A stretch of DNA of 64,000 nt. Source: Acidimicrobiales bacterium. GTDB lineage: Bacteria > Actinomycetota > Acidimicrobiia > Acidimicrobiales > SZUA-35. Position 1 is the first letter of the stretch, and each line of letters opens with the position of its first letter. The stretch is taken from NCBI GenBank assembly GCA_041594435.1, contig JBFHME010000001.1, forward strand, positions 716 to 64,715, in the 5' to 3' direction. Both the position numbers and the translations under genes were made by a program. Below are positions 1,608-36,091 of this stretch, one piece after another. The notes under the pieces are model-generated. The model was not told the origin of the DNA. It searched no databases and worked only from the letters and a program-made list of their open reading frames with translations.

Positions 1608-3167
1608 CTAGGCCGGCGGTCGACCCGAGCCGGTGCGGACCAGTCGATCGAGCACGGGCTTGATGAGTTGGGTGGATGCGGTCTCGGCATGGCCCGCCTC
1701 GTGGCAGTCGAGGGCCGCCTCGACGAGGGCCGACGGATCGACCGGGGTCTCTCCCGGAGTGACGCCCATGTCGGCGGCGATATCGAGCAGCACGGCGACG
1801 GCTCGAGGGTCGAGGTGGGTGCCGGCGCCGTCGACGATGTGATCGAGCGCCCGGCTCGGTTCCCAGCCCGGCCGATAGGCCCGGTCGGTGACGAGGGCGT
1901 CCCAGACGTCGGCCACCGCGGTGATCCGCGCCAAGAGGGGGATCTCGTGCCCGCTGAGACCGTCGGGATAGCCGGTGCCGTCCATCCGTTCGTGGTGGTG
2001 ACGGATGATGGGGAGACACGGCTCGAGGACCCGGTGGGCCGACGCGATGTCACAGCCGATCTGGGGGTGGGTGTTGATGACCCTCCGCTCGTTCTCGTCG
2101 AGCCTGCCCGGTTTGTTGAGTATCCCGTCGGGGATCCCGAGCTTCCCGATGTCGTGGAGGTAGGCGCCCTGGGCGAGTGTGCGAAGGGCGCCGGCATCGA
2201 GACCCATGCGGACGCCAATGGCCACCGCCAGCGCCGCCGTGCGTGCGGAGTGGCCGGAGGTGTAGGCGTCCTTGACCTCGATGGCGTCGACCAGGCTGCG
2301 AAGCGCTTCCGGGTAGTTGGTGGCGATGAGAGCCATCGGGTCGTCCTCGAAGGCGTGTTCGAGCACGACGGCCGCGGTGTCGGCGGATCGACGGCGGGTG
2401 ATCACGGCGAAGGCGACCCCGGCGAACCCGGCGAGCAGGCAACCGTGGTAGTCCCACCAGGAGAGCCGCCACGGTTCACTGAAATACATGGAGACGAAGC
2501 CCACGGCGGTCATGGCGGCGGCGATGGCCAGCGATGCGTGCACGATGTCGAGACTCAAACGGAACCGTCGCCAGTGCGACCACGCCACCGGGAAGAGGAT
2601 GGCGATCGAACCGATCAGCACCACCCATTTCAGTGTCTCCTCGAACGGGAGCGCGGATTCGCCGCCGAGAATGGTCGGGTCGATGACCACCGCGGTGACC
2701 AGGATCACCAGCGGCAGGGTGATCGCCGCAAGCACGGAGCCGGCGTGTCGACCGAGGAGTCGGAGCGCCGGCTTCGACCCGAACGCCGATGCCGATCCCA
2801 GCAGAAGGCTGAACAGCGTGAGGGCCAGGTAGGGGAAACGGCCCACCCACTGGTTGACCGGTTGCCCCAGCGTGTCCGGGGTCGTGAGTCCGTGGCCGAG
2901 GAGCAGCAGCCCAACCGTGACGCAGGCGGCGGCCCTCAGGACGAGGCTGGGCTGACGGACCAGGGTGGACGCCCGGGCCACCAGCGCTGCGACGACCAGC
3001 GAGCAGATGGCGATGACGGACATCAGGATCACATGGATCGTCAACGCGAAGACCTCGACATCGAGCGTCGGCATCAGCCGCAACGCAGCCAGAATCATCA
3101 AGGGGGCGAGCAACAATCCCAGCAGAAGGCCGTGGCGGGTCAGCGTTCGAACAAGCGCATCGTGCAC
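1608..3167 (-). CDS. Polytopic-membrane HD-GYP domain protein (putative c-di-GMP phosphodiesterase)
   Basis: C-terminal HD-GYP motifs GHSARTA, YLHDIGKLGIP, RHHHERMDGTGYPDGL. The N-terminal ~270 aa is hydrophobic (about 8 TM). The track ORF runs to 3959 but would overlap the USP gene. Start placed at GTG 3167, preceded by GGAGA. Confidence 0.82.
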   Translation of the reverse strand: MHDALVRTLTRHGLLLGLLLAPLMILAALRLMPTLDVEVFALTIHVILMSVIAICSLVVAALVARASTLVRQPSLVLRAAACVTVGLLLLGHGLTTPDTLGQPVNQWVGRFPYLALTLFSLLLGSASAFGSKPALRLLGRHAGSVLAAITLPLVILVTAVVIDPTILGGESALPFEETLKWVVLIGSIAILFPVAWSHWRRFRLSLDIVHASLAIAAAMTAVGFVSMYFSEPWRLSWWDYHGCLLAGFAGVAFAVITRRRSADTAAVVLEHAFEDDPMALIATNYPEALRSLVDAIEVKDAYTSGHSARTAALAVAIGVRMGLDAGALRTLAQGAYLHDIGKLGIPDGILNKPGRLDENERRVINTHPQIGCDIASAHRVLEPCLPIIRHHHERMDGTGYPDGLSGHEIPLLARITAVADVWDALVTDRAYRPGWEPSRALDHIVDGAGTHLDPRAVAVLLDIAADMGVTPGETPVDPSALVEAALDCHEAGHAETASTQLIKPVLDRLVRTGSGRPPA

Positions 3168-3210
3168 GATTCTCCATCGGCGGGCGGCGCTTCGGGCTGA
3201 AGTGTCGCTC

Positions 3211-3225
3211 GGGACGTTGGGCTCT
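3211..3225 (+). promoter_or_regulatory. Candidate operator box f (GGGACGTTGGGCTCT)
   Basis: Lies in the divergent HD-GYP / USP intergenic region. Fits the recurrent GGGWC-N4-GNCYC-T pattern. Confidence 0.4.
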
Positions 3226-3284
3226 ACCGCCACCCCCCACCGGGGGGTTCGATAGAGACAGCACCCCTGACGAGGAGGAATCCC

Positions 3285-4151
3285 ATGCAACCCCACTCGA
3301 CCACAACCGCTCCGGCGCTGGACGGCGACCGGCCCATCACACGGATCGTGCTGCCGTCGGTCAGCGGCATGCCCTACGACCGCACGACGATGCTCGGCGT
3401 CCGGGTCGCCGAGTCCTGGGGTTGTGACGTCGAGCTGGTGCACGTCACCTCCTCGATCGCTTCGGTCGATCCGATGCTCGACCATCACGCCGACCAGGTC
3501 GCCACGACCCACCCCGAACTCGAAGTGCACGCCACCCATCTCTACGGAGACGATCCCGCCACCGCCATCGCCGATCACGTCGGCCCCGGGGCGCTGGTGG
3601 TCATGTCGACCGACCACATGGACGCGTGGCGGGTCAAGGACTCGGTCGCCGAGCGCATGCTGGATCGGATCGGAGGCCCCGTTCTGCTCCTCGGTCCGAA
3701 TGTGACCGCCGCCCGCATGCGGACAGGCGGCATCGATGGCGAAGTCGTCCTCGGAGTCGACGGATCGGCCGCCGCCGAGGCCGGTGTCGCTCCCGCGCTG
3801 GCACTGGCCAAGGCTCTCGGGCACCGGCTGTGGCTGGTACGGGTCGTCCCCGACCCGAAGCCGGGCGATCCAGCCCACCCCGAGATCGCGGCTCGTCTCC
3901 AGTCGCTGGCCGAGGCAGGCAGCGACGAGGTCGCCACCCGGTGGGAGGTGATCCAGCACAACGACCCGGCCGGGGCCCTCGATGCCTTCGCCGCTCGCCG
4001 TGACGCCGCCGTGGTGGTCATCAGCCGCCGCCGGCGGTCGGACGACGCCCGGCCGTCGATGGCCAGCACCGCAGCCGGGCTCGTGGCCAGGGCCGCTTGC
4101 CCCGTGCTCGTCCTGTCAGCGCCGGAGGTGCCGGCGGTCGAAGCGGGCTGA
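3285..4151 (+). CDS. Universal stress protein, tandem USP domains
   Basis: Two USP-like halves (IVLPSVSG...VVMSTDH...GPVLLLG and VVLGVDGSAAAE...VVVISRRRR...ACPVLVLS). GAGGAGGA RBS upstream of the ATG. Confidence 0.9.
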   Translation: MQPHSTTTAPALDGDRPITRIVLPSVSGMPYDRTTMLGVRVAESWGCDVELVHVTSSIASVDPMLDHHADQVATTHPELEVHATHLYGDDPATAIADHVGPGALVVMSTDHMDAWRVKDSVAERMLDRIGGPVLLLGPNVTAARMRTGGIDGEVVLGVDGSAAAEAGVAPALALAKALGHRLWLVRVVPDPKPGDPAHPEIAARLQSLAEAGSDEVATRWEVIQHNDPAGALDAFAARRDAAVVVISRRRRSDDARPSMASTAAGLVARAACPVLVLSAPEVPAVEAG

Positions 4152-6353: not shown

Positions 6354-6398
6354 CCTTCGGCCCTGGTCGGGCCCGCCGTCTTCGACCAGTATCCACGT

Positions 6399-7082
6399 AT
6401 GGATCACAGCGAACGGGACGACCGTATCCGACGACAGGTCGCCGACGAGTTGGCCTGGGACTTCCTCATCGACGAATCGCAGATCGAGGTGGAGGTGACC
6501 GACGGCGTCGTCACCTTGGTCGGCACCGTCGGAAGCTATGCCGAGAAGATCGTGGCGCAACACGCGGCCGAGATGGTGGAGGGCGTTCACGACCTCGTCA
6601 ACTCGATCGACGTCAAACCGGCCGGTGAGCTGTATCCCACCGACGATGAACTCCTCGAGATCACCAAACAGGTTCTGACCTGGGATGCGCTGGTGCCCGA
6701 GCAGAATCTCACCGTCTCGGTGGTCGACGGTCTTGTGGCCTTGACCGGAACGTGCGCCACGAGGGCGCAGGCCCGTGAGGCGGAACGCGCCGTCAGCCAC
6801 CTGAGCGGTGTTCGGGCCGTACTCAACCGCATCCAGGTGACCCCGGCCGGCCCGACACCGGGCGACGTCCGTTCCGCGATCGAGGAGGCCCTGCGCCGTC
6901 GAGCCGCCCACCAGGCTTCACAGATCGATGTGATCGTCGACGGCAACCGGGTCACGCTTCGGGGGAAGGTGTCGTCGGCGCTCGAACGCCGGGCGGTGAT
7001 CGGTGCGGTGGGACACGCACCCGGGATCGCACGGGTGTGTGACGAACTCGAGCTCGTTGCCGAACGGGTGATCGACCGCTGA
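6399..7082 (+). CDS. BON domain protein (three BON repeats, OsmY-like)
   Basis: Three repeats of the pattern 'I.V.V.DGVVTL.G.V......A...A....GV..V.N.I.V'. Confidence 0.85.
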   Translation: MDHSERDDRIRRQVADELAWDFLIDESQIEVEVTDGVVTLVGTVGSYAEKIVAQHAAEMVEGVHDLVNSIDVKPAGELYPTDDELLEITKQVLTWDALVPEQNLTVSVVDGLVALTGTCATRAQAREAERAVSHLSGVRAVLNRIQVTPAGPTPGDVRSAIEEALRRRAAHQASQIDVIVDGNRVTLRGKVSSALERRAVIGAVGHAPGIARVCDELELVAERVIDR

Positions 7083-7088
7083 TCGGAT

Positions 7089-7553
7089 TCAGGGGGTGTC
7101 GTCGGTCTGGAGAAGGCGGAGCGGGGTGACAAGCACACCGATCGCCGATCCGAAGAGCCCGACCACGAGGATGAACCGGGCGACGAGATCCCAACGGAAC
7201 CCGTCCGGATCGAAGTCGAAGGGGAAGACGCTGAAGACCCGGAAGAGCGCGTAGAAGCCGATCGCGGTGACGATGCCTTCGATCAGCAGACCGATCCGTC
7301 GACCGGGGAACAGGATCCGCAGGACCAGACCGACAATGGTGGCGATGATGCTGACACTGATGGCACCGACGACACGGTCGTAGTCGTCGGTCAGAAACGG
7401 CAACAGCTCCCACTCGCCGAGATTGCGAACGACGGCGAGGAGAACGAGATTGATGGCGATGGCCACAAGGTGCCCGATCGACGCCACGATGCGTCCTCCG
7501 GTGTCGAACGAACCGGATCGATAGCGGCCATCGGCGTGGTGCTGCGCGGTCAT
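7089..7553 (-). CDS. Hypothetical integral membrane protein
   Basis: Four hydrophobic segments. The track ORF extends to a TTG at 7619, but I prefer ATG 7553 (MTAQHHADGR...). No family recognised. Confidence 0.55.
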   Translation of the reverse strand: MTAQHHADGRYRSGSFDTGGRIVASIGHLVAIAINLVLLAVVRNLGEWELLPFLTDDYDRVVGAISVSIIATIVGLVLRILFPGRRIGLLIEGIVTAIGFYALFRVFSVFPFDFDPDGFRWDLVARFILVVGLFGSAIGVLVTPLRLLQTDDTP

Positions 7554-7767
7554 CGGCTCATCACCCTCCCCGGCCGTCCCCGCCGGTCGCCGTTGCCGTC
7601 GACGTCGGAACCATTCCAACCTTCGAGCTCGGCCGCGATACCGAACCGGCAGACGTTGGCCAACGTCAGCTCGGTGCGGACGCCCGCCGCCGCTGGGAAG
7701 GCGGCTTGCTGCGGTTTGCGGGAGGTCCCCATGACTTCAGATTCGTTCACCATCGGTGAAGGGGAAA

Positions 7768-7782
7768 GGGTCCTACGTCCCT
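7768..7782 (+). promoter_or_regulatory. Candidate operator box a (GGGTCCTACGTCCCT; extended AAAGGGTCCTACGTCCCTTT)
   Basis: A 20-bp pseudo-palindrome about 90 nt upstream of USP ATG 7871. Resembles the DosR-type GGGAC-N4-GTCCC core. Confidence 0.5.
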
Positions 7783-7804
7783 TTTGGAGCGTGTCGATCA
7801 GCCG

Positions 7805-7819
7805 GGGACCTTCGACCCT
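7805..7819 (+). promoter_or_regulatory. Candidate operator box b (GGGACCTTCGACCCT)
   Basis: 51 nt upstream of USP ATG 7871. Nearly identical to box g at 20251-20265. Confidence 0.5.
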
Positions 7820-7870
7820 GGAGTGTTCGCCGCAGGTGGGGCACACTGGGAGAAACGAGAGGAGGCTTTC

Positions 7871-8686
7871 ATGTTTCACCGCCTACTCGTGCCGCTCGAC
7901 GGCACGCAGAGCGCGGCGGTCGCCCTACGAACCGCCGAGCGTTTGGCTGATCGTTGGGACGTCGACATCGCCGTCTTGACGGTGCTCAACAAAGAGAACG
8001 AGAAGCTCGGACTCGACCAGATCGTGGCTCGTCAGGTCGCCGGCATCGAACACGCCAGGGACATCGTCGTCAAACCGGGTTCGTACTCGATCGCAGACGA
8101 CATCACCGCGGCGTTCGACGAGGAGGATGACACCCTGTTGGTCATGAGCACCATGGCCCGGGGACGAGTTGCCGGTTTGGCAGCCAACGTCGCCGAGGAG
8201 GTGATGCGCCAGGTTCGGGAACCGACACTGCTCGTCGGCGCGGCGGTTGATCTGCCCGACAATTGGCCGACCGGCGATCTCATGATCTGCATCGACGGCT
8301 CGGACTTCGCCGACACGATCCTGCCGGTGGCCGCTCGCTGGTCGGACGCCCTGGATCTGAACCCGATGATCGTCGGGGTGATCGACCCGGCCAAGGTTCC
8401 CGCCGAGGTGCCGACCATCTATGAGAGAAACGCCGTGGCCCGGGCGGCGCACGATCTGCAGGACCTCACGGATCGGACCGTCAACTACGACACCCTCCAC
8501 GGCCCCGACCCGGCAAAGGCGATCGTTGACTACGCCCGCAAGACCAATGCCTCCCTGCTTGCGATGGCCACCCATATCCGTTCGGGCGTCGACCGTGTCC
8601 TTCACGACAGCGTCGCCATGGCGGTGGTGCGCAGCGCCACGTGCCCGGTTCTCGTGAACCGACCTCCGGTCGATCCCTCCAAGTAG
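7871..8686 (+). CDS. Universal stress protein, tandem USP domains
   Basis: MFHRLLVPLDGTQSAAVAL... and LMICIDGSDFAD...LLAMATHIRSGVDRVLHDSVAMAVVRSATCPVLV. ATG 7871 follows GAGGAGG, and the upstream part of the track ORF is discarded. Confidence 0.9.
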   Translation: MFHRLLVPLDGTQSAAVALRTAERLADRWDVDIAVLTVLNKENEKLGLDQIVARQVAGIEHARDIVVKPGSYSIADDITAAFDEEDDTLLVMSTMARGRVAGLAANVAEEVMRQVREPTLLVGAAVDLPDNWPTGDLMICIDGSDFADTILPVAARWSDALDLNPMIVGVIDPAKVPAEVPTIYERNAVARAAHDLQDLTDRTVNYDTLHGPDPAKAIVDYARKTNASLLAMATHIRSGVDRVLHDSVAMAVVRSATCPVLVNRPPVDPSK

Positions 8687-8696
8687 AGGAGTTGGG

Positions 8697-9596
8697 GTGA
8701 TGACCTCCACCAGCCGTCGGGCGAACGACAAGAGGTCGTGCGATGCTCGGCCGACCGGCATGGTGGTGGGCATCGACGGTTCCGGCCCCTCCCTCCATGC
8801 CCTTGAATGGGCGGTCGCCCGAACGGACCAATTCGGTCCGGTCCAACCGGTGATCGCCTGGCACCACCCCTGGTGGAGTTACATGGGACAGACCGTTCCG
8901 AGAGCCCGCCCGTTCGAGGACGCGGCTCGGGCGGAGATCGAACGGGCGATCAGCTCGGTTCGGTCGTCGATGATCGCCGAACCGATCGTGGTGCGAGCCC
9001 GGTCGGTGTCAGCCCTGATCGACGTCGGTGCATCGGCCGGTCTGATCGTGGTCGGGACTCGAGGTCGAAGCGGTCGTGCCGATGGACTCGTCGGATCGGT
9101 TGCCGCCGGCGTCGTGGCCCGGTCGCCGGTACCGGTCGCCGTCGTACCACCGTCGGCGCCGATCGATGATCGCCACCGGCGGGTCGTGGTCGGATTCGAC
9201 GGCTCGCCGAACTCGATTCGGGCCCTGCAATGGGCGGTCGACAACGTGCCCACCCCGTCGGTGATCGAGGCCGTCGAAGTGTGGGCTCCGGCTCCGCCGC
9301 TGCCGGGAGTGGCGTCTTCGCAGGACGCAACCGCGCAGGACGCCCACGCCCGGGCGCTTCTCGAGCGGACCCTGTCGGGCGTCGAGCGGCCAGAAGCGGG
9401 CGCAGCGACCGTGCAGGCCGACCTGGTCCACGGTGACCCCCGATCCGTGTTGCGGGAACGGTCGTCGGCGAGCGACCTGCTCGTGCTCGGAGCGCGCGGC
9501 CGAGGTGGGCTGGCCCACCTCCTCCTCGGCAGCGTTTCCACCGCCCTGGTTCACCACCCGAACGTGACAACCGTGGTCGTTCCCGCTCGTTCCTGA
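8697..9596 (+). CDS. Universal stress protein, tandem USP domains
   Basis: MVVGIDGSGPSLHALEWAV...LIVVGTRGRSG... and VVVGFDGSPNSIRALQWAV...LLVLGARGRGGLAHLLLGSVSTALVHH. GAGGAG RBS. Lies 10 nt after the preceding USP gene. Confidence 0.9.
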   Translation: MMTSTSRRANDKRSCDARPTGMVVGIDGSGPSLHALEWAVARTDQFGPVQPVIAWHHPWWSYMGQTVPRARPFEDAARAEIERAISSVRSSMIAEPIVVRARSVSALIDVGASAGLIVVGTRGRSGRADGLVGSVAAGVVARSPVPVAVVPPSAPIDDRHRRVVVGFDGSPNSIRALQWAVDNVPTPSVIEAVEVWAPAPPLPGVASSQDATAQDAHARALLERTLSGVERPEAGAATVQADLVHGDPRSVLRERSSASDLLVLGARGRGGLAHLLLGSVSTALVHHPNVTTVVVPARS

Positions 9597-9597
9597 G

Positions 9598-10110
9598 TCA
9601 ACGTCGAGGTTCGGTTGGTGATCCGGTCAGTGCACGGGCGATCTGGCGCGTCCACCCTTCGATCTCCTCCCAATCGCGGAGATCGCTGTCATGCGCACCG
9701 ACCCAACGGGCCATGAAACGCTCCTTGGTCGGCAGGCGGTCCAAGTCGAGCCGGCCACCGAAGAGCCGGTGCTCGACGGCTTCGGTCAACTCGAGGAGAC
9801 GGTCGACGACCTCAGAACGGATCGGTTCGGCCGGTGTGGCCGGACCGAACGGTCCACTGCTGAACAACCAGGTCGGCTTGGACCGGAGCTCCTCACCATG
9901 CTCTTCGACGAACGTGACGGCCGAATCGAGCCAGTCGCCGAAATAGAGGCTGCTGCCGATGATGTGGGCGTCGTAGGGCGACAGGTTGAACATCTGGTCG
10001 GGCTGGCTGACGTCGACGTCGAATCCTTCGGCTCGTAGGGTCTTGGCCATCGCTCGGCCGATCTCGGCGGTGCCGCCGAATCGGCTGGCGGGGACGATGA
10101 GCACTCGCAT
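9598..10110 (-). CDS. Flavodoxin-like domain protein (HemG/Flavodoxin_5-like)
   Basis: MRVLIVPASRFGGTAEIGRAMAKTL...IIGSSLYFGDWL pattern. Start taken at ATG 10110 rather than the track start 10134. Confidence 0.78.
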   Translation of the reverse strand: MRVLIVPASRFGGTAEIGRAMAKTLRAEGFDVDVSQPDQMFNLSPYDAHIIGSSLYFGDWLDSAVTFVEEHGEELRSKPTWLFSSGPFGPATPAEPIRSEVVDRLLELTEAVEHRLFGGRLDLDRLPTKERFMARWVGAHDSDLRDWEEIEGWTRQIARALTGSPTEPRR

Positions 10111-10162
10111 GACGAACCTCCGATCCAGATTCAACCATCACCCGAAATGTCGGATCAGGCCA

Positions 10163-10177
10163 GGGACCTTGGGCCCT
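10163..10177 (+). promoter_or_regulatory. Candidate operator box d (GGGACCTTGGGCCCT)
   Basis: Lies in the divergent flavodoxin-like / lipoprotein intergenic region. Confidence 0.4.
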
Positions 10178-10237
10178 TACCGGCATCGGCCGACCGGATC
10201 GATGTTTCGTTCGCCGCCCGCCCAGCGGTCTGAAAGC

Positions 10238-10252
10238 GGGACTTAGGGCTCT
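10238..10252 (+). promoter_or_regulatory. Candidate operator box e (GGGACTTAGGGCTCT)
   Basis: 34 nt upstream of the lipoprotein ATG 10287. Confidence 0.4.
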
Positions 10253-10286
10253 GGCGCCGGTTCAGGCTCGGGAGCACGCTGGACGT

Positions 10287-11120
10287 ATGACCAGCGAACC
10301 GTACCCACGCCGGTGGGTGATCGCTGTGATCGCCGCACTCGCCATCCTCATCGGTGCCTGCGCCGACGAGGGTGACGAGGCCACGACGACAAGCGACAGC
10401 ACCGAGGAAACCACATCGACCACCTCCGACTCGGTCACCACGGCGTCGACCGACTCGACGACGACCTCGACGACCTCGACCGAGTCGACGAACACGACGG
10501 CGTCGACCGACTCGACGGCCACCACGGCCACCACCGCCGGCTTGCCGGGGGAGGAAATCAGCGGGTATGTCACCGACGGTGACGTCCTCGGGGTCGTGGC
10601 GGTTCGCCACGACGACGTTCTCAACATCCGGGCCCTGCCGGGAACCAACCAGCGGGTTGTGACCACGGCCGACCCCACCGATGTCGATCTGGTGGCGACC
10701 GGTCGAGCCCGCCTGCTACCGAGGTCGATCTGGTGGGAGGTTGAGCATCGCGGCAGGACCGGATGGGCCAGCAGCCGATTCCTCGGTCACGTCGCCGGTA
10801 CCGACGACGTCACGGCGGCCTTCCTGGCCGACTACGGCGAGAGGCCGGTGGCCGAAACGCTCGTCGAGCTGGGTGAACTGGTGGCCGCCGAGTTCGCCTC
10901 GGTGGATCCCCCGTCGCGGATCGTGTTGACCGTCGGCCCCTCTGTTGGTGATCTCGGCGAGGTCACCTACGACGTGATCGGCCTCGGCGACGACTCCGTT
11001 CTCGGTTTCCGCCTGCACCTGTTCGCAGTCCAGCTTGACGACGGCGAGAGCTTCGAGCTGCGGACGATCGAGCAGACGCTGTTCTGTGCCCGAGGGACCA
11101 GCGGGGAGATTTGCGTTTGA
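10287..11120 (+). CDS. Putative lipoprotein with Thr/Ser-rich linker and SH3b-like domain
   Basis: Signal peptide with lipobox-like LIGAC, a 55-aa T/S/D linker, then VLNIRALPGTNQRVV...WWEVEHRGRTGWASSRFL (bacterial SH3-like). Confidence 0.7.
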   Translation: MTSEPYPRRWVIAVIAALAILIGACADEGDEATTTSDSTEETTSTTSDSVTTASTDSTTTSTTSTESTNTTASTDSTATTATTAGLPGEEISGYVTDGDVLGVVAVRHDDVLNIRALPGTNQRVVTTADPTDVDLVATGRARLLPRSIWWEVEHRGRTGWASSRFLGHVAGTDDVTAAFLADYGERPVAETLVELGELVAAEFASVDPPSRIVLTVGPSVGDLGEVTYDVIGLGDDSVLGFRLHLFAVQLDDGESFELRTIEQTLFCARGTSGEICV

Positions 11121-11160
11121 CGCCGTAGAGCTCCACCGGTTCGCCGCCGTCTGAGTCCCG

Positions 11161-13527
11161 TTGGCCTCAAACACGGGGCCTTTCGGTCGATGGACCTCTG
11201 AAATGGCTCTTTCCACTCCGCCTGCCATCGAGGCCGACAGGTTTGCCGTGAACACCGTCCATCGCACGGTGCTCATCGTGGGTCGTGACGACAAACGGCG
11301 GAGGGCATTGGAGCGCGCCGTCGAAGCCGGGGGCTGGTTGCCACTGTCCGTTTCCAGCGCCTCGGAGGCCTTGACCGCGCTCGAATCGGTGCCACCCAGT
11401 CTTGTCGTCCTCGCCGTCACCGAGCCGGACGGGCCCGAGTTCAAGGTTCTCGACGAGCTGCGAGCCGACCCCGACGGCGAGCGGGTACCGGCGGTTGTGG
11501 TGCTCTGGCGGCGGGACCGGGCAATCGTGCTCGAAGCGTTCGGCCGCCGAGCCGACGACGTCATCAGCGGCCGCGTTTCGAACGAGGAGCTCGTTGCCCG
11601 CTTGGCCGTCCGCATGGACCGGCCACCACTTCCCCGATCCGAGCTGGTCAAGGACCCGGTTACGGGCGCCGTCAACCCCGAGGCCCTGGAGCGGCAGACC
11701 GAACTCGAACTCGAACGGGTCTCGCGCCGCGGCCGGGTGGGCACCCTGGCGTATCTCGCCCTCGATGAGCTACCGGGCCTGCAGGCCCAGCTGGGGCCAC
11801 GGGCTCGTGACGAGTTGCTCGCCCAGGTCGTTCGCCTGGTCGAAGCCGATGGCCGCCAGCTCGATCACATCGGGTTCGACCGGGGGGTTTTGGCCCTGCT
11901 GCTGCCCGGCACACCCGCCAAGGGCGCCCAGATTCGACTCGAACGCCTTTCGAGAATCATTCATGGGCACGAGTTCTCGGTCACCGGAAACCCCGTACGC
12001 CTGACGCCGCTCATCGGCCACACACAGCTCGAAGCGGGTCTTTCCCGCGAGGAGCTGGAGGACCGGGCGTGGACGGCGCTGTCGTACGAGGCGGATCAAC
12101 TCGATCTCCATCCAACGCGATGGCAGCCGGCCATGTCCGGGGAGCAGGACGATTTCGGTCCCGTCCGAGCCGTCCTGGAGCGGCTCCGCACACCGCTTCA
12201 GGTCGCCGTCCAGCAGCTCACCTGTCTGGTGGTGCCGTTCTGTGCGTACGTCATTCTCGACCGTTTCGGTCTCGACATCACCGGTGCCGTCTACCTGTCG
12301 CTCGTCGCCGCCCTGGGGTTCACGACCACCCTGCTCTGGTTCGAGTGCCTGGCCGCCCGACACCGGCCCGAGCCGCCGCCACCGCCATCGGGCGAGCCGC
12401 CCAAGGCGTCGGCCATCATCGCCGCGTATCTGCCGAATGAGGCCGAGACGATCGTCGAAACCGTCGAGGCGTTCCTCGCCACCGACTATCCCGACCTGCA
12501 GATCATCCTCGCCTACAACACACCGCGTCCGATGCCGGTCGAACGCGAGTTGATTGCGATCGCCGAGCGGGACCCGCGCTTCGAGCCACTACGGGTCGAG
12601 GGTTCGGTGAGCAAGGCCCAGAACGTGAACGCCGCGGTCACCCGAGTTCGGGGGGAGTTCGTCGGCATGTTCGACGCCGACCACCACCCTCGACCGGGAT
12701 CCTTCCACCGAGCGTGGCGATGGCTGGCCGGCGGAGTTGACGTCGTCCAGGGGCACTGTGTCGTACGCAACGGCGGTCAGAACTGGCTGACCCGGCTGGT
12801 CGCCGCCGAGTTCGAGGTCATCTACGCCGTATCCCACCCCGGCCGGGCCCGCCTGCATTCGTTCGGGATCTTCGGCGGATCCAACGGCTACTGGCGAACC
12901 GAGCTGTTGGAGCGCACCCGGATGCGGGGGTTCATGCTCACCGAGGACATCGATTCGTCGCTTCGAGTCGTGACCGACGGGGGCCGAATCGTGTCCGACC
13001 CGGGGCTGACCTCGACCGAACTTGCGCCCGACACGGTCGGGGCACTGTGGAACCAGCGGCTGCGGTGGGCCCAGGGTTGGTCCCAGGTGTCGCTACGTCA
13101 TCTGCCTCGAATGACGCGGGGGTCGCTCAGCCTCCGTCAACGCTTGGGGGCGATTCACCTGCTCGGGTGGCGCGAGATCTATCCCTGGATGTCCCAGCAG
13201 ATTGCGCCGCTGTTCGTCTTCTGGTTTCTACGGGGCAGCCCGCCCATCGACTGGTTTGTGCCCGTGTTCGTGGTGACCACCGTGTTCACGCTGTCGATCG
13301 GCCCGGCCGAGACCTGGTTCGCCTGGCGTTTCGCCGATCCGTTGATCAAACGGAATCCACGCTGGTTCCTGCTCTACATGGTCATGTCCCTCCTCCCCTA
13401 CACGGAGGCGAAAAACGTCGTGGCCCGTACCGCCCACATCAAGGAGATCATGCGGGAACGAAAGTGGAAGGTGACTCCACGGTCCGTCGGCGCCGCTTCG
13501 AAGGCCTTGGATCATCAGTCGATCTGA
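11161..13527 (+). CDS. Pseudo-receiver / degenerate-GGDEF / family-2 processive glycosyltransferase fusion (exopolysaccharide synthase-like)
   Basis: GT2 motifs: FDADH (DxD), LTEDIDSS (TED), QRLRWAQGW (QxxRW), flanked by TM segments. The N terminus is REC-like with the acceptor Asp position occupied by Ala (SLVVLAVTEPDG). The GGDEF-like domain has DRGVL in place of GGDEF. Start uncertain (TTG 11161 or ATG 11203). Confidence 0.8.
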   Translation: MASNTGPFGRWTSEMALSTPPAIEADRFAVNTVHRTVLIVGRDDKRRRALERAVEAGGWLPLSVSSASEALTALESVPPSLVVLAVTEPDGPEFKVLDELRADPDGERVPAVVVLWRRDRAIVLEAFGRRADDVISGRVSNEELVARLAVRMDRPPLPRSELVKDPVTGAVNPEALERQTELELERVSRRGRVGTLAYLALDELPGLQAQLGPRARDELLAQVVRLVEADGRQLDHIGFDRGVLALLLPGTPAKGAQIRLERLSRIIHGHEFSVTGNPVRLTPLIGHTQLEAGLSREELEDRAWTALSYEADQLDLHPTRWQPAMSGEQDDFGPVRAVLERLRTPLQVAVQQLTCLVVPFCAYVILDRFGLDITGAVYLSLVAALGFTTTLLWFECLAARHRPEPPPPPSGEPPKASAIIAAYLPNEAETIVETVEAFLATDYPDLQIILAYNTPRPMPVERELIAIAERDPRFEPLRVEGSVSKAQNVNAAVTRVRGEFVGMFDADHHPRPGSFHRAWRWLAGGVDVVQGHCVVRNGGQNWLTRLVAAEFEVIYAVSHPGRARLHSFGIFGGSNGYWRTELLERTRMRGFMLTEDIDSSLRVVTDGGRIVSDPGLTSTELAPDTVGALWNQRLRWAQGWSQVSLRHLPRMTRGSLSLRQRLGAIHLLGWREIYPWMSQQIAPLFVFWFLRGSPPIDWFVPVFVVTTVFTLSIGPAETWFAWRFADPLIKRNPRWFLLYMVMSLLPYTEAKNVVARTAHIKEIMRERKWKVTPRSVGAASKALDHQSI

Positions 13528-13768
13528 TCCTCATGGTCCCGGGCCGGCTGCGCCCCTGGAGCCGAGGACCTGACGATTGTGGTTCGGGGCGGTCAGCGGC
13601 GAAATCGCCGTCGCTGGCTGTCGGAGTGACTCGTTCTGACCCAAGGCTGATTCCTCCGTGGTTTGGTCTCGAGTCCCTGCCGCTCCCGGCGTCGGTCGAG
13701 CCGGCCGAAAACGCGAATGTCACGAAGCCAGGTGGCGAACTTGCGGTTTGCGGTCACGATCCTTCCTC

Positions 13769-14464
13769 TCAGATGCCCATGCCGCTCAGGTGGTGGGCAA
13801 CGTCGTTGATCGCTGCGGTCAACGATGGGTGGTCGGTTTCGAACCGGTGCAGAGCGTCGAGCAATCGCTGATCGAGGCGACTGCGATCGGTCTCGGTCGG
13901 GTCGGGGAGGCGACCGAGTGCCGCCTCCCTCAGCTCGGACAGTTCGTCAACCTCGTCGGTACGGTCGATGAGATCGACCAGACGATCAACGGCGGCGACG
14001 AAACCCGGATGACTCGGTCCGGGACCGCTTGGCAGGACCAGGACCGGCCGGTCGACGACCTTGAGCAATGCCGAGGTGACGCTGTCCAGTCTGGGCCGGC
14101 CTTCGAGATCGTGCCGACGTGCGACGACCACGATCATCGCCGACCGCCACTCCTCGGCCTCGGCCAGAATCACATCGACCGGCGGGCCGACCAGTGTTGC
14201 AACCCGAGCGTCGATGCCGTCGTCCACGAAGGTTTGGGCCGACTCGGTCAGGCGTCGGCCGACCTCGTCGATTTCGTCGGCGGTCGACTCCTGTGGAACC
14301 GCGTTGACCAGCACGAGCGGCCATCCGGTGGCCAGGGCCAGGGTCTTGATCACCGAGGTCGGAGGTGGCGGGCTGGGAGGATCGATGGCCACGAGGATCG
14401 ACGAGGCGTCGACGTCTGGCACTCGATCGTCCCACTGGTTATCGGTGTCGTGCGTGTCCGGCAT
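13769..14464 (-). CDS. USP domain protein with C-terminal DUF4404-like tail
   Basis: USP-like core (ILVAIDPP...MIVVVARRHD...RPVLVLP). C terminus RFETDHPSLTAAINDVAHHLSGMGI matches my recollection of the DUF4404 ending. Confidence 0.78.
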   Translation of the reverse strand: MPDTHDTDNQWDDRVPDVDASSILVAIDPPSPPPPTSVIKTLALATGWPLVLVNAVPQESTADEIDEVGRRLTESAQTFVDDGIDARVATLVGPPVDVILAEAEEWRSAMIVVVARRHDLEGRPRLDSVTSALLKVVDRPVLVLPSGPGPSHPGFVAAVDRLVDLIDRTDEVDELSELREAALGRLPDPTETDRSRLDQRLLDALHRFETDHPSLTAAINDVAHHLSGMGI

Positions 14465-14495
14465 GTTCAGGTCGCTCCTTGTCGTCGTCTCGCCG

Positions 14496-16211
14496 TCATC
14501 GTCTCGCCAACTCGTCGACGAACGGTATGACGATCGGTCCGTCGGCCCCGAGAATCACGAGCACATCGTCGTCGGCTCGATCGGTGAGTTGCCGATCGAG
14601 GTCGACGATGTCGATCGGTCCCTCCTGGTGGTCGGTGCGGTGCCAGTGGACGACCGACGCCCCACTCGTCTCGGCCAGATGCCGGGCCAGTCCCGGATGG
14701 TCGGCCGCCACGAGCACCACCCGTCGGCCGGGCAGGTCCGGTTCGACCGGTTCCGGCGGCGCTGCCGGCCTCCCGGCGCCCGGTCGCTCCGATCGATACA
14801 CCCGATAGTGGTACCAGGCCGCTGCGGTTACCGTCGCCAGGATGGCCAGCCCCACGCGATCGTCGTGCAGCGTCTGACGGGAAAGACTGCCGTCGAGCAC
14901 ATCCTCGATCGTGGTGAACAGCACCGCCACTGCGCTGACCAGCACCAGAAGACCACCCACCCCGAACAAGGTGAAGAGGTAGACGCGCCTGACGGGCGAG
15001 TTGGTCTCGCCGGGTGGGTCGGCGCGAACATTCCGTTCGATCCGAGACCAGAACCAGGCCCAGACCGGTCCCGCGACGGCGACCATCGTGGCCCCCGCGA
15101 TCGCAACGTTGGCCACAGATCCCGGTCCGTCGTCGAACACGGCGACCAGGAGCGTCGCCACACCCACGACGGTGGCAACAAGTGACGCCAGCGCAAGCAG
15201 GTAGTCGTGGATCCGGATCGCCATACCCCGGTCGGGATCCGGCCCGAGCTCCCAGCGGTGGTACAGCCAGCACGCCAGCCCGGTGACCACCACACCGGCC
15301 AGAACCGGCAGCGAGTCGAAGTGACGCACTGCCGTGGCGGCGTCCGGGTTCCCGAGGAACCAGACCCCGACGCTGTCGACAGCGGCCGCCACCCCCACGA
15401 TGGTGGCCACGAATCCGGCGAGAGCCCCGATGGGTAGCACGGTGACGTACCATGTTTCCGTTCGACGCGACCGCCGGTAGTGGTTCAACCAGTACCAGGC
15501 CCAGGTGGCGCCCCCGACCGCGGCGAGGGCCACGAAGTAGGCAAGGCCCGGGTCCGTTGGCGCCGGCGACGGGTCGTCGGTGACGGCGTCGTAGAGCGCA
15601 TCGGCGGCGAGGTAGCCCATCCCGCCAAGGCCGACGGCAAGCGGCACGAGTCCAGCGATCGTACCGATCGCCAGGTGTAGGTCACCGAGGATTCCGTGGC
15701 GCCGCCGCGGCCCGAACCAGTGGCCAGCCCACACACCGCCCCAGACGGCGGCGGCGACGAAGTTGGACGTCTCGAAGGTCCGCTCGTCCCCCGAGGAGAG
15801 TGCTTCGTGGAGGAAGGCCTGGCCCTCGATGAGGAGGCCGAAGACGGAGGTGGCCAGGACGGCGTTGAGATACACCGTCCAGGCCAGGGCTCCACGCTCC
15901 TCCCACCCCGAGGCGAGACGTCGATCGATGTAGCGGCCGAGCAGGGCGGTCACCGGCAGTCCGACGATCAGGAAGCTCATGGCCCGGGCCAATGCGGTGT
16001 TGGACCGCCGGTCCGATTCGATCAGCTCGCGGGTCAGCTCGATGACGCCCTGGGCGGTCAGGATCACCGTGGCGTACAGCAGCCCGTAGAGGAACAGCCT
16101 CCGGACCATCGCCGCCGGATCCCGAGCGTCGGCGCCTGGATGCCGGGTGACCCGGATGATCAGCCAGACGGCGAGGAGGGCGATGACGAGCGTTGAGAGG
16201 CCGACCAGCAT
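14496..16211 (-). CDS. Polytopic membrane protein built from repeated two-helix units, with small C-terminal soluble domain
   Basis: About 13 TM segments. The Trp/Tyr-rich helix end plus Arg cluster recurs: VWGGVWAGHWFGPRRR, TWAWYWLNHYRRSRR, CWLYHRWE, VWAWFWSRIER, AAWYHYRVYRSER. Confidence 0.75.
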   Translation of the reverse strand: MLVGLSTLVIALLAVWLIIRVTRHPGADARDPAAMVRRLFLYGLLYATVILTAQGVIELTRELIESDRRSNTALARAMSFLIVGLPVTALLGRYIDRRLASGWEERGALAWTVYLNAVLATSVFGLLIEGQAFLHEALSSGDERTFETSNFVAAAVWGGVWAGHWFGPRRRHGILGDLHLAIGTIAGLVPLAVGLGGMGYLAADALYDAVTDDPSPAPTDPGLAYFVALAAVGGATWAWYWLNHYRRSRRTETWYVTVLPIGALAGFVATIVGVAAAVDSVGVWFLGNPDAATAVRHFDSLPVLAGVVVTGLACWLYHRWELGPDPDRGMAIRIHDYLLALASLVATVVGVATLLVAVFDDGPGSVANVAIAGATMVAVAGPVWAWFWSRIERNVRADPPGETNSPVRRVYLFTLFGVGGLLVLVSAVAVLFTTIEDVLDGSLSRQTLHDDRVGLAILATVTAAAWYHYRVYRSERPGAGRPAAPPEPVEPDLPGRRVVLVAADHPGLARHLAETSGASVVHWHRTDHQEGPIDIVDLDRQLTDRADDDVLVILGADGPIVIPFVDELARR

Positions 16212-16220
16212 TGCCGCCTC

Positions 16221-17645
16221 CTACTCCCGCTCCTCGTCGGCCGGGTTGATGAGGCCGTAGTGGCCGTCGTAACGGCGGTAGACGACGTTGCCCCGGCCGC
16301 TCGTCTGATCGACGAAGAACATGAACCGGTCACCCGTCGCTTCGAGTAGATCGACCGCGTCGGACGGCCGGAGCCTCGGCGGTGGGTTCTCGGCCATCGC
16401 CACCTTCGTCACACTGTTGATCGGGCCGTGCTCGGCCGGTTGCCGGAACTGGATCACCAGCGCGCCGTGGCCGTCGCCCGTCAAGACGGCATCGTCGCCG
16501 GTATCGGCCTCGACGAAAAGGAGGAACTCGTAATCGAGCATCTCGAGATCCCAGGCGGCCTCGTCGATCGTCAACTCGTCTGGGGTGAACGACCGATGAC
16601 GCACGATTTCCGGTTCGTCGGGTTTCATGGCGGCCGGTTCGAGCGACTCCGATGCGATCTGCCCGGGTGCGGTTCGGGAGCCGTTGAGCGGATCACGACC
16701 CCGTTGCCGGGCTCGGCGACGACTGCGGTCGTGGCGAATCCGGACCTGGAGGCGGTCGACGACCCGGTCGATGGCCTCCGTGAACGTCGGGGCCTCGGCA
16801 TGGGCCCGGACGATCGTGCGGTCGAGATCGAGCACGACCTCGGCCATCGCCGGGCGTTCGTATGCCGGATTGTCGACGGCGGTGAGCTTGACACGCACAA
16901 ACCGAACCGGTCGGCCGACGGTGTCGACGAGGTGCCCGATGCGGGTCCGGGCGTAGCGGGTGGCGTCGTCGGCAACGGTGCCGCGGACCGCAAGCTGGAA
17001 CGGCGGTGCCGTCGCCGTTTCGTCGCCCCGGGCGCCGTCGGGTTCGATGTCGACCCACTGCTCGACGATCTCACCCCGATCGATGATGAACGACGCACCA
17101 TGATCGTCGTCGTCGCATGGGCAGTCGACTCGAACGTAGCGGCCGAGACCGTAGATGTCGGCCTTCTCCGGATCGAGACCGGCCAGCGGGGAACGCTCGA
17201 GGGCCGCCCGCAGGCGGTTCCACCCGGTGAGATCGCCGTCGGCCTGATGGAGCACGGCGTCGGGTCGGTACAGGGCGGCCGCACCGTCGAAGTCCCGATC
17301 TCCCATCGCCTCGAGCCATGCCTCGACAACGCGGAACGGGGGAGACGAACTATCGATGCCGTAGTGACGGGCTACGGTGGTCGCCACCTTGGCTCCTGGT
17401 CGCCGGGCTCCGGTCAAATCGCCGAACCGGCGCTGCCTGCGGCTGGTTCGTGTGCCTCTGCGAAGGCGCACGTCGGCCGCCGACTCGTCACCGTGATCGC
17501 GGACGAGCCGGAACTCGACCCTTGCGTTGGGTACCCTCGCCTTCGGTTCGACCTGATCGAGTGGTGCCGCCAGAGTACGGCCCCTGCGGACGATGTAAGC
17601 CACGTCCCGCTGCTCGTCGATCCGTTTCACGCGTCCAGCCGGCAT
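16221..17645 (-). CDS. Ribosome hibernation factor (S30AE/HPF, Rv0079-like with duplicated C-terminal domain) fused to an N-terminal ~210-aa extension
   Basis: S30AE-like core (FQLAVRGTV...AEVVLDLDRTIVRAHAEAPTFTEAIDRVVDRLQVRIRH). Two HPF C-terminal-like modules (MLDYEFLLFVEADTGDDAVL; FMFFVDQTSGRGNVVYRRYDGHYGLI). N-terminal beta-barrel-like and NTF2/SnoaL-like (FRVVEAWLEAMGDRDFDGAAALY) segments. Confidence 0.85.
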   Translation of the reverse strand: MPAGRVKRIDEQRDVAYIVRRGRTLAAPLDQVEPKARVPNARVEFRLVRDHGDESAADVRLRRGTRTSRRQRRFGDLTGARRPGAKVATTVARHYGIDSSSPPFRVVEAWLEAMGDRDFDGAAALYRPDAVLHQADGDLTGWNRLRAALERSPLAGLDPEKADIYGLGRYVRVDCPCDDDDHGASFIIDRGEIVEQWVDIEPDGARGDETATAPPFQLAVRGTVADDATRYARTRIGHLVDTVGRPVRFVRVKLTAVDNPAYERPAMAEVVLDLDRTIVRAHAEAPTFTEAIDRVVDRLQVRIRHDRSRRRARQRGRDPLNGSRTAPGQIASESLEPAAMKPDEPEIVRHRSFTPDELTIDEAAWDLEMLDYEFLLFVEADTGDDAVLTGDGHGALVIQFRQPAEHGPINSVTKVAMAENPPPRLRPSDAVDLLEATGDRFMFFVDQTSGRGNVVYRRYDGHYGLINPADEERE

Positions 17646-17702
17646 AGATACTCCCAGCGTCGAGTTGAGTCCTACTCTGCGCCGCTCCCTGGTGTTGGAG
17701 AA

Positions 17703-17717
17703 GGGTCATTGGTCCCT
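17703..17717 (+). promoter_or_regulatory. Candidate operator box c (GGGTCATTGGTCCCT; extended GAAGGGTCATTGGTCCCTTC)
   Basis: A 20-bp pseudo-palindrome 57 nt upstream of the HPF-fusion gene start (17645, minus strand). Confidence 0.5.
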
Positions 17718-17757
17718 TCGTCGGTCGCCGGCGGCCACGACCGCCCTCCGGACGGTT

Positions 17758-17772
17758 GGGACCTCCGGCCCT
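17758..17772 (+). promoter_or_regulatory. Candidate operator box h (GGGACCTCCGGCCCT)
   Basis: 86 nt upstream of the CoA-binding gene ATG 17859. Confidence 0.4.
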
Positions 17773-17858
17773 GCCCATCGACAAACCAACAGACGACGAT
17801 GATCAACAACGATCGCTCTGCCATCGTTCAACCGAATCCGCTTGTGAGGAGGACCATC

Positions 17859-18335
17859 ATGGCCACCATTGCTGAGGCCGCCGCGGACTTTCTGGCCAAC
17901 AAACGTGTCGCTGTCACCGGGGTGTCCCGGACACCTGGCGCGCACGCGGCCAATGCGGTGTACAACCGGCTGAAAGATCGGGGATACGAGGTTTTTGCGG
18001 TGAATCCCAACGCGACGGAAGTCGAAGGTGATCCCGCGTATCCCGACCTGGCGACCATCCCGGGAGGTGTCGACGCCGTTGTCATCGGCACCGCCCCCGA
18101 TCAGGCCCCGGCAACCGTGCAGGAGTGCATCGACCTCGACATCGGCCACGTCTGGTTTCACCGTGGTCCCGGTCGGGGTAGCGCCAACCCGGCGGCCGCC
18201 GATCTGGGACGGATCAACGGGCTTGCCGTGATCGACGGTGGATGCCCCTGCATGTTCGGTCCGACAGCCGATGTCGGCCACCGTGTCATGCGACCCATTC
18301 TTCAACTCACCGGTAGCGTGCCTCGGCAGGTGTGA
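17859..18335 (+). CDS. CoA-binding domain protein (YccU/CoA_binding_2-like)
   Basis: KRVAVTGVSRTPGAHAANAVYNRLKDRGYEVFAVNPN...VDAVVIGT...HVWFHRG. ATG 17859 follows GAGGAGGA. The rest of the 635-aa track ORF is antisense to the HPF gene. Confidence 0.85.
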   Translation: MATIAEAAADFLANKRVAVTGVSRTPGAHAANAVYNRLKDRGYEVFAVNPNATEVEGDPAYPDLATIPGGVDAVVIGTAPDQAPATVQECIDLDIGHVWFHRGPGRGSANPAAADLGRINGLAVIDGGCPCMFGPTADVGHRVMRPILQLTGSVPRQV

Positions 18336-18357
18336 CGGTCCGAACCGGCCCGGTGGT

Positions 18358-35983: not shown

Positions 35984-36063
35984 GCTTCACTCCTTGGCAA
36001 GGAAATCGGCCGAATCATGGTCGGAGTTGAGGCGCAATGGTGGAGAACAGATCGGTCAACAGC

Positions 36064-36091
36064 TAACAGCCGGTGGGAGTCGACCCGATAG
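36064..36091 (+). promoter_or_regulatory. Sigma-28-like promoter candidate: TAAC-N16-CCCGATAG
   Basis: 33 nt upstream of the REC-HDOD GTG (36125). Shares TCGACCCGAT with the site upstream of the tadE-like gene. Confidence 0.3.

Follow-up and report, generated by a model that had tools for sequence, protein, structure and literature searches.

Can the catalytic subunit of a polysaccharide synthase carry its own receptor for cyclic di-GMP (c-di-GMP) in the same polypeptide? The question is raised by one gene in a stretch of 64,000 nucleotides (nt) from an Acidimicrobiales bacterium (GenBank assembly GCA_041594435.1, contig JBFHME010000001.1, positions 716 to 64,715), which we call the window and number from its first letter. 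A single open reading frame (ORF) of 788 codons, 11161..13527 on the forward strand, had been read from the letters alone as a pseudo-receiver and a degenerate GGDEF domain that keeps an RxxD motif, fused to a processive-type glycosyltransferase of family 2 (GT2). We found the ORF as described, and the architecture held up in hidden Markov models (HMMs), a PleD profile match, an AlphaFold2 (AF2) model and Foldseek comparisons. The fusion is a member of a large family and not a one-off. From the residues that this family keeps and loses, we think it rather likely that c-di-GMP would bind the allosteric I-site of the GGDEF domain and switch on the fused synthase.

Domain architecture and structural model

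Read from its first codon, TTG 11161, the ORF encodes a receiver-like (REC) domain, a GGDEF domain, two transmembrane (TM) helices, the GT2 domain and a bundle of TM and interface helices, all on the forward strand. Amino acid (aa) numbers follow this 788-codon reading unless we say otherwise. The pseudo-receiver (11269..11604, aa 37-148) scored 17 bits with Pfam PF00072, under the gathering score of 30.2. We assigned it as a receiver all the same because the NCBIfam PleD model covers aa 31-311 (E 3e-10), the family profile matches PleD and the AF2 model has the (beta-alpha)5 fold; the column statistics also support it. The degenerate GGDEF domain (11653..12081, aa 165-307) was above its cut-off (PF00990, 28.1 bits, gathering score 23.8), and is backed by a Foldseek match to 3ign and by alignments to active cyclases. 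Two N-terminal TM helices (12160..12354, aa ~334-398), seen in AF2 and in hydropathy, link this sensor module to the family 2 GT-A domain (12400..13080), for which we have HMMs, profile and fold matches and motifs; three overlapping Pfam models, including Glyco_tranf_2_3 (E 1e-21), cover aa 414-689. The C-terminal bundle (13081..13464, aa 641-768) was placed from AF2 helices and from matches to the membrane parts of BcsA, the hyaluronan synthases and PcManGT. At E<=1, Pfam gave no match in the fusion protein to PilZ, the C-terminal domain with RxxxR and DxSxxG that marks synthases of the BcsA type.

A profile of 105 family members, compared with the PDB, matched the second receiver plus GGDEF domain of PleD (E 3e-28), DgcR (8e-25) and WspR (1e-19), and also the receivers of PhoB, KdpE and MtrA (E 1e-13 to 1e-16). 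The AF2 model was built on the alignment of these 105 members and has a predicted local distance difference test score (pLDDT) of 87.6 and a predicted template-modelling score (pTM) of 0.78. It runs from a receiver through a GGDEF fold and two long TM helices to the GT-A domain and a C-terminal helix bundle, with the (beta-alpha)5 fold of the receiver at E22-H139 (pLDDT >90) and the TM helices at 320-354 and 360-384, all in the numbering of a 774-aa product. When we searched the PDB with Foldseek, the N-terminus matched WspR, DgcR and PleD, and the isolated GGDEF domain matched the c-di-GMP-bound structure 3ign with a template-modelling (TM) score of 0.88 and a root-mean-square deviation of 1.9 A. 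The remainder of the protein matched BcsA and the Chlorella-virus and Xenopus hyaluronan synthases (TM score ~0.57) and the "minimal cellulose-synthase-like" PcManGT (TM score 0.72). By HMMs and by structure prediction alike, the N-terminus models as REC plus GGDEF.

The sequence-only reading had allowed that the true start might lie downstream of these domains. The candidate starts (TTG 11161, ATG 11203 and GTG 11248) are all 5' of the first REC strand at ~nt 11266, and ATG 11203, which gives the 774-aa product, is the probable one; public gene calls use it for an identical protein (P0001, 774 aa, GCA_041615375.1). The window has a G+C content of ~66%, and G+C at third codon positions (GC3) is 0.80-0.85 in every domain of the gene compared to 0.67 in the first 36 codons. 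This step indicates a translated gene whose true start is slightly downstream of the first TTG. Since GC3 is high in all domains and more than 100 homologues keep the full-length architecture, the N-terminal domains are translated and are not an artefact of ORF extension. The peptides on which the domains had been recognized each occur exactly once and in the expected place (SLVVLAVTEPDG at aa 80-91, DPVTGAVNPEAL at aa 165-176 and LALDELPGLQAQLG at aa 199-212), and the motifs fall at 232-235 (RQLD), 240-244 (DRGVL), 504-508 (FDADH), 594-596 (TED) and 632-640 (QRLRWAQGW).

Loss of the phosphorylation and cyclase sites

At the phospho-acceptor position the receiver has Ala85 (nt 11413-11415), which had been seen correctly. 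An Arg had also been placed at the conserved Lys position, and this did not stand: ADDVISGR is found where ADDYLxKP is expected, the aligned residue is Gly137, and the Arg comes one residue later at 138. The Thr/Ser position is lost as well. Going by these residues the receiver of the window protein cannot be phosphorylated, and we rejected phosphorylation control of this protein on the basis of Ala85 and Gly137.

It could still be argued that the receiver remains the input through phosphorylation by a histidine kinase, in the manner of the sister clade described below, and that the I-site is a vestige of feedback. The acceptor Asp is present in 53 of 121 close relatives (our close homologue set, 56-100% identical to the window protein), and three close loci (L001, L002 and L010) have kinase genes nearby. 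However, the window protein lacks the acceptor Asp, the Lys and the Thr/Ser residue, the Lys is gone from the whole clade (ADDV..G for ADDYLxKPF) and the REC score is well below the Pfam cut-off, so we find this account scarcely credible.

The GG(D/E)EF motif of the cyclase active site (A-site) is replaced by DRGVL (11878..11892), and RQLD is kept just upstream. Both points had been made from the letters, and both are borne out by alignment to the active cyclases PA0861, SiaD and 6d9m; the column statistics agree on DRGVL. In these alignments the metal-binding Asp falls on Ala200 and the guanine-binding Asn on Gln208. Taken together, DRGVL, Ala200 and Gln208 exclude cyclase activity, and the A-site is degenerate in all 121 close homologues.

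A conserved I-site

The I-site motif D230-G-R232-Q-L-D235 (RxxD; 11848..11865) was recognized from alignments and conservation. Its R232-Q-L-D235 aligns with the RxxD I-site of the same three active cyclases, and D230, R232, D235 and G238 are invariant in the close homologues (121/121). A second element is the helix R259-L-E-R262-L (11935..11949), where R262 sits 13 residues past a conserved Pro and is invariant in the 105-sequence alignment. By motif spacing, R262 is the putative counterpart of the secondary I-site arginine (PleD R390, PelD R402). The whole GGDEF domain is 143 residues long and has only 14 invariant columns in the 105-sequence alignment, four of which are D230, R232, D235 and R262.

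As far as conservation can tell, the allosteric I-site (R232-x-x-D235 plus R262) is under strict selection in the window's clade. The proposal that the domain is a built-in c-di-GMP receptor is partly supported, with real comparative support coming from the conservation of these residues and from their loss in the sister clade, where the receiver is still phosphorylatable.

Two clades with probably different inputs

All of the best 120 database matches to the fusion protein are full-length, and the few of them that are named have automatic labels such as "glycosyltransferase" or "GGDEF domain-containing protein". At one reference genome per species we found at least 129 relatives, mainly in Actinomycetota and Chloroflexota, with a few in metagenome-assembled genomes (MAGs) of Proteobacteria or Acidobacteriota. 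Their taxa include Acidimicrobiia (81-83% identical), Gaiellales, Thermoleophilia, Cellulomonas, Actinotalea, Kineococcus, Demequina, Frankiales and many Chloroflexota. When we searched 1.84 billion cluster representatives exhaustively, 431 clusters came out at E<=1e-30.

We compared clades in an alignment of 76 full-length members, 31 of them in clade A, which includes the window protein, and 45 in clade B. The receiver is decayed in clade A (ADDV..G) and canonical in clade B (DD, xSDVM, ADDYLxKPF), and the GGDEF A-site is dead in both. RxxD is invariant in clade A but mostly absent from clade B: R232 is found in 31/31 members versus 6/45, and R262 in 30/31 versus 8/45. Counted over all 76 members, 30 have an I-site with a degenerate REC, 38 have an intact REC and no I-site, three have both and five have neither. 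A neighbour-joining tree made from the TM and GT part alone gives the same two-clade split.

The 38 loci with an intact REC and no I-site often have signalling genes close by: 13 have a GAF/PAS-HisKA-HATPase kinase within 3 kb, and 10 have a single-domain receiver gene. These neighbours of the intact-REC clade argue that the module is a regulatory input and that the type of signal differs by clade. Identity to the window protein is 79% (clade A) and 71% (clade B) in the GT domain, falling to 57% and 33% in the GGDEF domain and to 45% and 27% in REC, which points to the same enzyme bearing a rapidly evolving input module. We infer that the ancestral form was a phosphorylation-controlled, PleD-like adaptor and that clade A swapped this input for ligand binding at the I-site.

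A few members do not fit either type. L069 and L071, from proteobacterial MAGs, are placed inside clade B and have an intact receiver together with the full I-site triad, and P0124 and P0126 share this combination, down to the Asp and Lys of the receiver. These four may be dual-input forms or evolutionary intermediates. The GT2 core (~430 residues) also occurs alone, with the degenerate GGDEF domain only, or with REC-REC-GGDEF; P0121 (1131 aa) has this last arrangement, which is the full PleD order, ahead of its GT2. Five proteins (P0133, P0137, P0141, P0153 and P0165) have ~150-330 N-terminal residues without a domain match before the GGDEF or GT2 domain, and these stretches may be unrecognised sensor domains.

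The synthase core and its probable product

The GT2 motifs lie at 12427-12441 (YLPNE), 12610-12630 (SKAQNVN), 12670-12684 (FDADH), 12940-12948 (TED) and 13054-13080 (QRLRWAQGW). The last three had been named as processive-synthase motifs, and we were able to align them with FDADH, TED and QRGRW of BcsA, where TED provides the catalytic base on the finger helix and QxxRW binds the acceptor (PMC8892547). Both clades keep YLPNE, SKAQNVN, FDADH, QGHCVVRN, FGGSNGYWR, TED and QRxRWAQGW, each of which lines up with its BcsA counterpart, and FDADH is invariant across them. Near the C-terminus, WKVTPR (13465..13482) fits [FW]xVTx[KR] and is a putative counterpart of FxVTxK, the gating-loop motif of BcsA (PMC8892547). 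Each of its positions is at least 80% conserved in clade A; in clade B the same holds for the W, T, P and R, while the V is 50-80% conserved and the K position is variable. The protein ends 14 residues past this motif.

The best NCBIfam match of the GT2 part is the PgaC/IcaA equivalog (TIGR03937, E 4e-22). At 78.6 bits it is far under the cut-off of 422.3, so the window protein is not a PgaC orthologue. Membership of the CelA and NodC equivalogs was ruled out by score as well, and the protein falls into no curated family.

Relatives whose core is 40-46% identical have C-terminal fusions to TPR repeats and a PgaA-type beta-barrel, presumably in diderm hosts. One of these, P0152 (1967 aa), has the GT2 core, TPR repeats and a PgaA-like outer-membrane beta-barrel in one polypeptide, an arrangement of synthase, TPR and porin that we have not seen described. 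In P0157 (1610 aa; L082 6841-11673) the GT2 core is joined to TPR, and a separate PgaA_barrel gene is found nearby. Both P0152 and P0157 are flanked by genes of the GH5 "cellulase" family. Within clade B, 11 of 80 loci have an Acyl_transf_3 gene directly 3' of the fusion gene (for example L045 14344-15912, L054 8126-9445 and L078 7984-9687), and in five of 80 a GH30 glycosidase gene adjoins it. The acyltransferase and GH30 neighbours hint at an O-acylated beta-glycan.

These partners (TPR and PgaA-like porin fusions, GH5, GH30 and Acyl_transf_3) point to a secreted polysaccharide made by a synthase-dependent route, probably beta-linked and at times O-acylated.

A different output is conceivable, in which the GT2 domain is a lipid or lipid-carrier glycosyltransferase, like GtrB, DPMS, PcManGT or GT21, that remodels the envelope under stress. 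This would be compatible with either view of how the protein is regulated. The best target-normalised fold match is indeed PcManGT, a minimal mannosyltransferase, and several family members match Glyco_transf_21; the window protein has only about five TM helices, its chain has none past the gating-loop-like motif, and the window offers no partner gene. However, processive synthases typically have the full set of D, DxD, TED and QxxRW with an FxVTxK-like motif, the barrel fusions and GH5 flanks look like machinery for exporting and trimming a secreted polymer, and the clade B acyltransferase and GH30 neighbours also speak against a lipid acceptor. We therefore consider a lipid glycosyltransferase quite unlikely.

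Comparison with known systems

The closest known sensor module is the tandem of BcsE, a protein of cellulose secretion systems of the E. coli type, rather than PelD or PssE alone. The GIL domain of BcsE is a degenerate REC-GGDEF tandem that binds c-di-GMP at RxxD; BcsE has an extra N-terminal domain and acts through BcsQ, BcsR and BcsF on BcsA (PMC7439463). As in the window protein, a degenerate receiver and a dead GGDEF domain with RxxD serve a GT2 exopolysaccharide synthase. However, BcsE is a separate soluble protein and BcsA bears its own PilZ domain, whereas the window's tandem is joined covalently to the first TM helix of a synthase that has no PilZ. Neither the PDB sequence matches listed nor the Foldseek matches listed included BcsE.

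Dead GGDEF domains that keep RxxD are also found in PelD (Pseudomonas), PssE (Listeria) and YdaK (Bacillus), which are membrane-anchored, bind c-di-GMP and are needed for polysaccharide synthesis (PMC2170427, PMC4125290, PMC5422440). PelD is an I-site receptor that activates polysaccharide synthesis (PMC2170427), and PssE binds c-di-GMP at its I-site with a dissociation constant (Kd) of 0.79 uM (PMC4125290). By analogy, we take activation to be the direction of the c-di-GMP effect on the window protein. The genes for PssE and YdaK adjoin GT2 genes (PssC, YdaM), but receptor and glycosyltransferase are separate polypeptides there, unlike in the window fusion. The partner domain in PelD is a GAF domain where the window protein has the pseudo-receiver, and PelD matched the window's GGDEF domain by sequence at E ~0.7 only. 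The Pel transferase is a GT4 enzyme.

For the synthase half the nearest comparison is BcsA, the best PDB sequence match of the GT part (E 9e-11 and 1e-13). It too joins, in one polypeptide, a c-di-GMP receptor domain to a processive membrane GT2 (D, DxD, TED, QxxRW, gating loop; PMC8892547, PMC8461298). Its sensor is a C-terminal PilZ beta-barrel, while that of the window protein would be an N-terminal GGDEF-type putative I-site. There are eight TM helices in BcsA, which depends on BcsB, whereas the window protein has about five and no BcsB is encoded nearby. PgaC and PgaD make up a small synthase of 2 + 3 TM helices, and c-di-GMP activates it directly (PMC12564702, PMC10333796), but PgaCD binds the ligand at the PgaC-PgaD interface and has no GGDEF domain.

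The nearest homologues of the N-terminal module itself are PleD, WspR and DgcR, which share the REC-GGDEF order and the position of the I-site. These are active cyclases that are controlled by phosphorylation and use the I-site for product inhibition, whereas the window's module has lost both activities and has a synthase as its output.

Genomic context in the window

Upstream of the fusion gene, as had been noted, is an SH3b-like lipoprotein gene (10287..11120, forward strand; Pfam SH3_3 E 4e-5, lipobox LIGAC). It is probably co-transcribed with the fusion gene, as the gap is 40-82 nt and we found no terminator in it. A promoter and terminator scan of 10050-13850 gave neither a sigma-70-type promoter nor a terminator in the stretch that separates the SH3_3 gene from the fusion gene, but such a scan is uninformative in a high-GC actinobacterium. 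We ruled out a functional pairing of the SH3 and GT2 proteins because the SH3_3 gene is limited to the window's genome and a near-identical contig. No gene is conserved next to the fusion gene across 80 loci. Positions 10421-10539 contain imperfect direct repeats of 27-30 nt (family D1), which encode a Thr/Ser/Asp-rich, low-complexity linker of the lipoprotein, likely an O-glycosylated or extended stalk. Searching 5500-18500 for repeats found only this Thr/Ser-rich coding repeat and chance matches.

The HD-GYP phosphodiesterase said to be nearby is 7 kb from the fusion gene (1608..4115, reverse strand), and it is intact in both its HD and its HHExxDGxGYP motif (HHERMDGTGYP). Its sequence shows that a predicted c-di-GMP turnover enzyme is encoded near the fusion gene. 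Our scan of 20 window ORFs for other c-di-GMP genes turned up, besides this HD-GYP gene, only one for a REC-HDOD protein; the HDOD domain is related to HD-GYP and is uncharacterised. The REC-HDOD response-regulator gene (36125-37303) is divergent from two adjacent histidine-kinase-like genes (HATPase_c, one with PAS), the group spanning 32716-37303. Rfam matched nothing in the whole window, neither a riboswitch (GEMM, for example) nor any other kind of RNA.

Export or modification partners had been described as absent, and there are indeed none within ~5 kb. This is unsurprising if the host, as we suppose of an actinobacterium, has no outer membrane. A PGA_cap gene (CapA-like, poly-gamma-glutamate capsule family; 21288-22511, reverse strand) is found 8 kb from the fusion gene, on its downstream side.

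The fusion gene is within a dense stress and hibernation island (6399-9596 and 13769-17645). On its upstream side are a BON gene (6399-7082), two tandem-Usp genes (7784-9596) and a flavodoxin gene (9598-10134, reverse strand), and on its downstream side, all on the reverse strand, a Usp-DUF4404 gene (13769-14464), a DUF5671 gene (14496-16211) and the gene for a long hibernation factor, HPF (16221-17645). The hibernation factor is unusually long (474 aa), with an N-terminal SnoaL_2-like domain and two S30AE_C stretches.

Both of the candidate stress boxes that had been noticed ahead of the gene are present and palindromic. Box 1 (GGGACCTTGGGCCC, 10163..10176) is in the divergent promoter region and is kept beside the flavodoxin gene in L001, L002 and L010. 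Box 2 (GGGACTTAGGGCTC, 10238..10251, forward strand) is 36 nt 5' of the SH3_3 gene, and L004, L005 and L008 have boxes like it 94-158 nt 5' of their orthologous GT2 genes. Similar GGGACNWWRGNCCC boxes are at the Usp start (7768-7781 and 7805-7818), 58 nt 5' of the HPF gene (17703-17716) and at 3211-3224. Their number is weakly above chance, with nine observed and 3.8 expected, and three of 100 shuffles reached nine. The boxes look like the mycobacterial DosR/DevR box and suggest a dormancy-type regulon in this Acidimicrobiia genome. Farther along, the product of 50757-53162 (reverse strand; 801 aa) contains two radical-SAM stretches as well as a CofH_C region and resembles an FbiC-type F420 biosynthesis enzyme.

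Weighing the receptor reading

Several points count against a c-di-GMP receptor fused to a synthase. The linker from RxxD to the A-site is one residue shorter than canonical, and the best PDB sequence match of the GGDEF domain is that of FimX, which is not known to bind c-di-GMP. The conserved Arg and Asp residues could form inter-domain salt bridges instead. No diguanylate cyclase was found in the 20 ORFs that we scanned, which are part of the window's ORFs. On the synthase side, WKVTPR lies in a low-pLDDT tail, and the two TM helices that follow the BcsA gating loop are absent. Finally, by the tree the clade contrast amounts to about one evolutionary event, so that the split of 30 versus 38 members is not 68 independent observations. 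What the comparison would then record is essentially long purifying selection on the contrast after a single event.

These points leave room for the idea that the REC-GGDEF module is a ligand-independent adaptor or dimerisation module, a PleD-like fossil in which R232, D235 and R262 hold together an interface between domains or subunits, with the enzyme controlled solely by transcription in a stress regulon or by a protein partner. Clade B keeps the GGDEF domain without an I-site, so the domain has a role independent of c-di-GMP there; the degenerate FimX domain is the nearest sequence match, and the gene sits behind DosR-like boxes amid stress genes. However, the residues that are invariant where the receiver has decayed are the very ones that align with the I-site of PleD, PelD and BcsE, and one would not expect some arbitrary interface to arrive at this same set. 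The phosphorylatable receivers and neighbouring kinases of clade B also indicate that some input is the rule in the family. We judge a ligand-independent adaptor to be unlikely.

The pocket might also bind some other nucleotide (pGpG, 3'3'-cGAMP, (p)ppGpp or GTP), which would place polymer synthesis under stringent or dormancy signalling. This would suit the stress and hibernation island and the short linker, and the PleD structures 9g85 and 9g86 in the PDB hold ppGpp or pppGpp together with c-di-GMP. However, the RxxD I-site has been described as a c-di-GMP site (PMC2170427, PMC4125290, PMC7439463), the A-site residues that would hold GTP (metal Asp, Asn, GG(D/E)EF) are gone, and there is a gene for an HD-GYP c-di-GMP phosphodiesterase nearby. 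Another nucleotide as the ligand seems to us very unlikely.

On our best reading the gene product is an inner-membrane, cellulose-synthase-like GT2 with a cytoplasmic, N-terminal REC-GGDEF tandem of the PleD/BcsE kind. If c-di-GMP is the ligand, the following sequence of steps would fit. It would bind the I-site, probably in the form of an intercalated dimer like those of PleD, PelD and BcsE, and would alter how the module, tethered to the first TM helix, packs or dimerises. This change would open the active site or the gating loop of the synthase, and a beta-linked exopolysaccharide would be polymerised and translocated. Transcription would probably belong to a stress or dormancy regulon (DosR-like boxes; Usp, BON, HPF and flavodoxin neighbours), and the nearby HD-GYP enzyme would lower the c-di-GMP signal.

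Significance

Control of exopolysaccharide synthases by c-di-GMP is a central theme of biofilm biology. To our knowledge, every studied case uses PilZ (BcsA, Alg44), a separate degenerate-GGDEF protein (PelD, PssE, YdaK, BcsE) or a subunit interface (PgaCD). In the literature we searched we came across neither a GGDEF-GT2 nor a REC-GGDEF-GT2 fusion, although one may have been mentioned in passing before. The claim is modest in kind, because all of its parts and its logic, an I-site receptor controlling an exopolysaccharide synthase, are already known. What goes beyond the sequence-only reading is the size of the family, the dichotomy between phosphorylation and I-site on a constant core, and the partner genes that point to synthase-dependent exopolysaccharide.

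We put forward, as a tentative proposal somewhat short of probable, that the family is an undescribed synthase-dependent exopolysaccharide pathway in which a PleD-derived REC-GGDEF module sits on a minimal GT2 and in which the input was switched once, from phosphorylation to c-di-GMP. The switch may have led from phosphorylation, as in Chloroflexota, Cellulomonas, Kineococcus and Frankiales, to the I-site, as in Acidimicrobiia, Gaiellales and Thermoleophilia. The partners of such a pathway may vary by lineage and include GH5 or GH30 hydrolases, an acyltransferase-3 and a TPR/PgaA-like porin.

The family is common in poorly studied Actinomycetota and Chloroflexota of soil and sediment, and we know of almost no work on matrix polymers or c-di-GMP effectors in these groups. 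If the receptor reading is true, this would be the first GGDEF I-site receptor that is covalently fused to its target enzyme, and a sensor and synthase in one polypeptide would be the simplest system for tracing I-site occupancy to a glycosyltransferase. Clade B, with a core 71-79% identical, a phosphorylatable receiver, no I-site and adjoining kinases, is a natural control. Together the two clades would form a natural paired system in which the same adaptor relays two different signals to a synthase.

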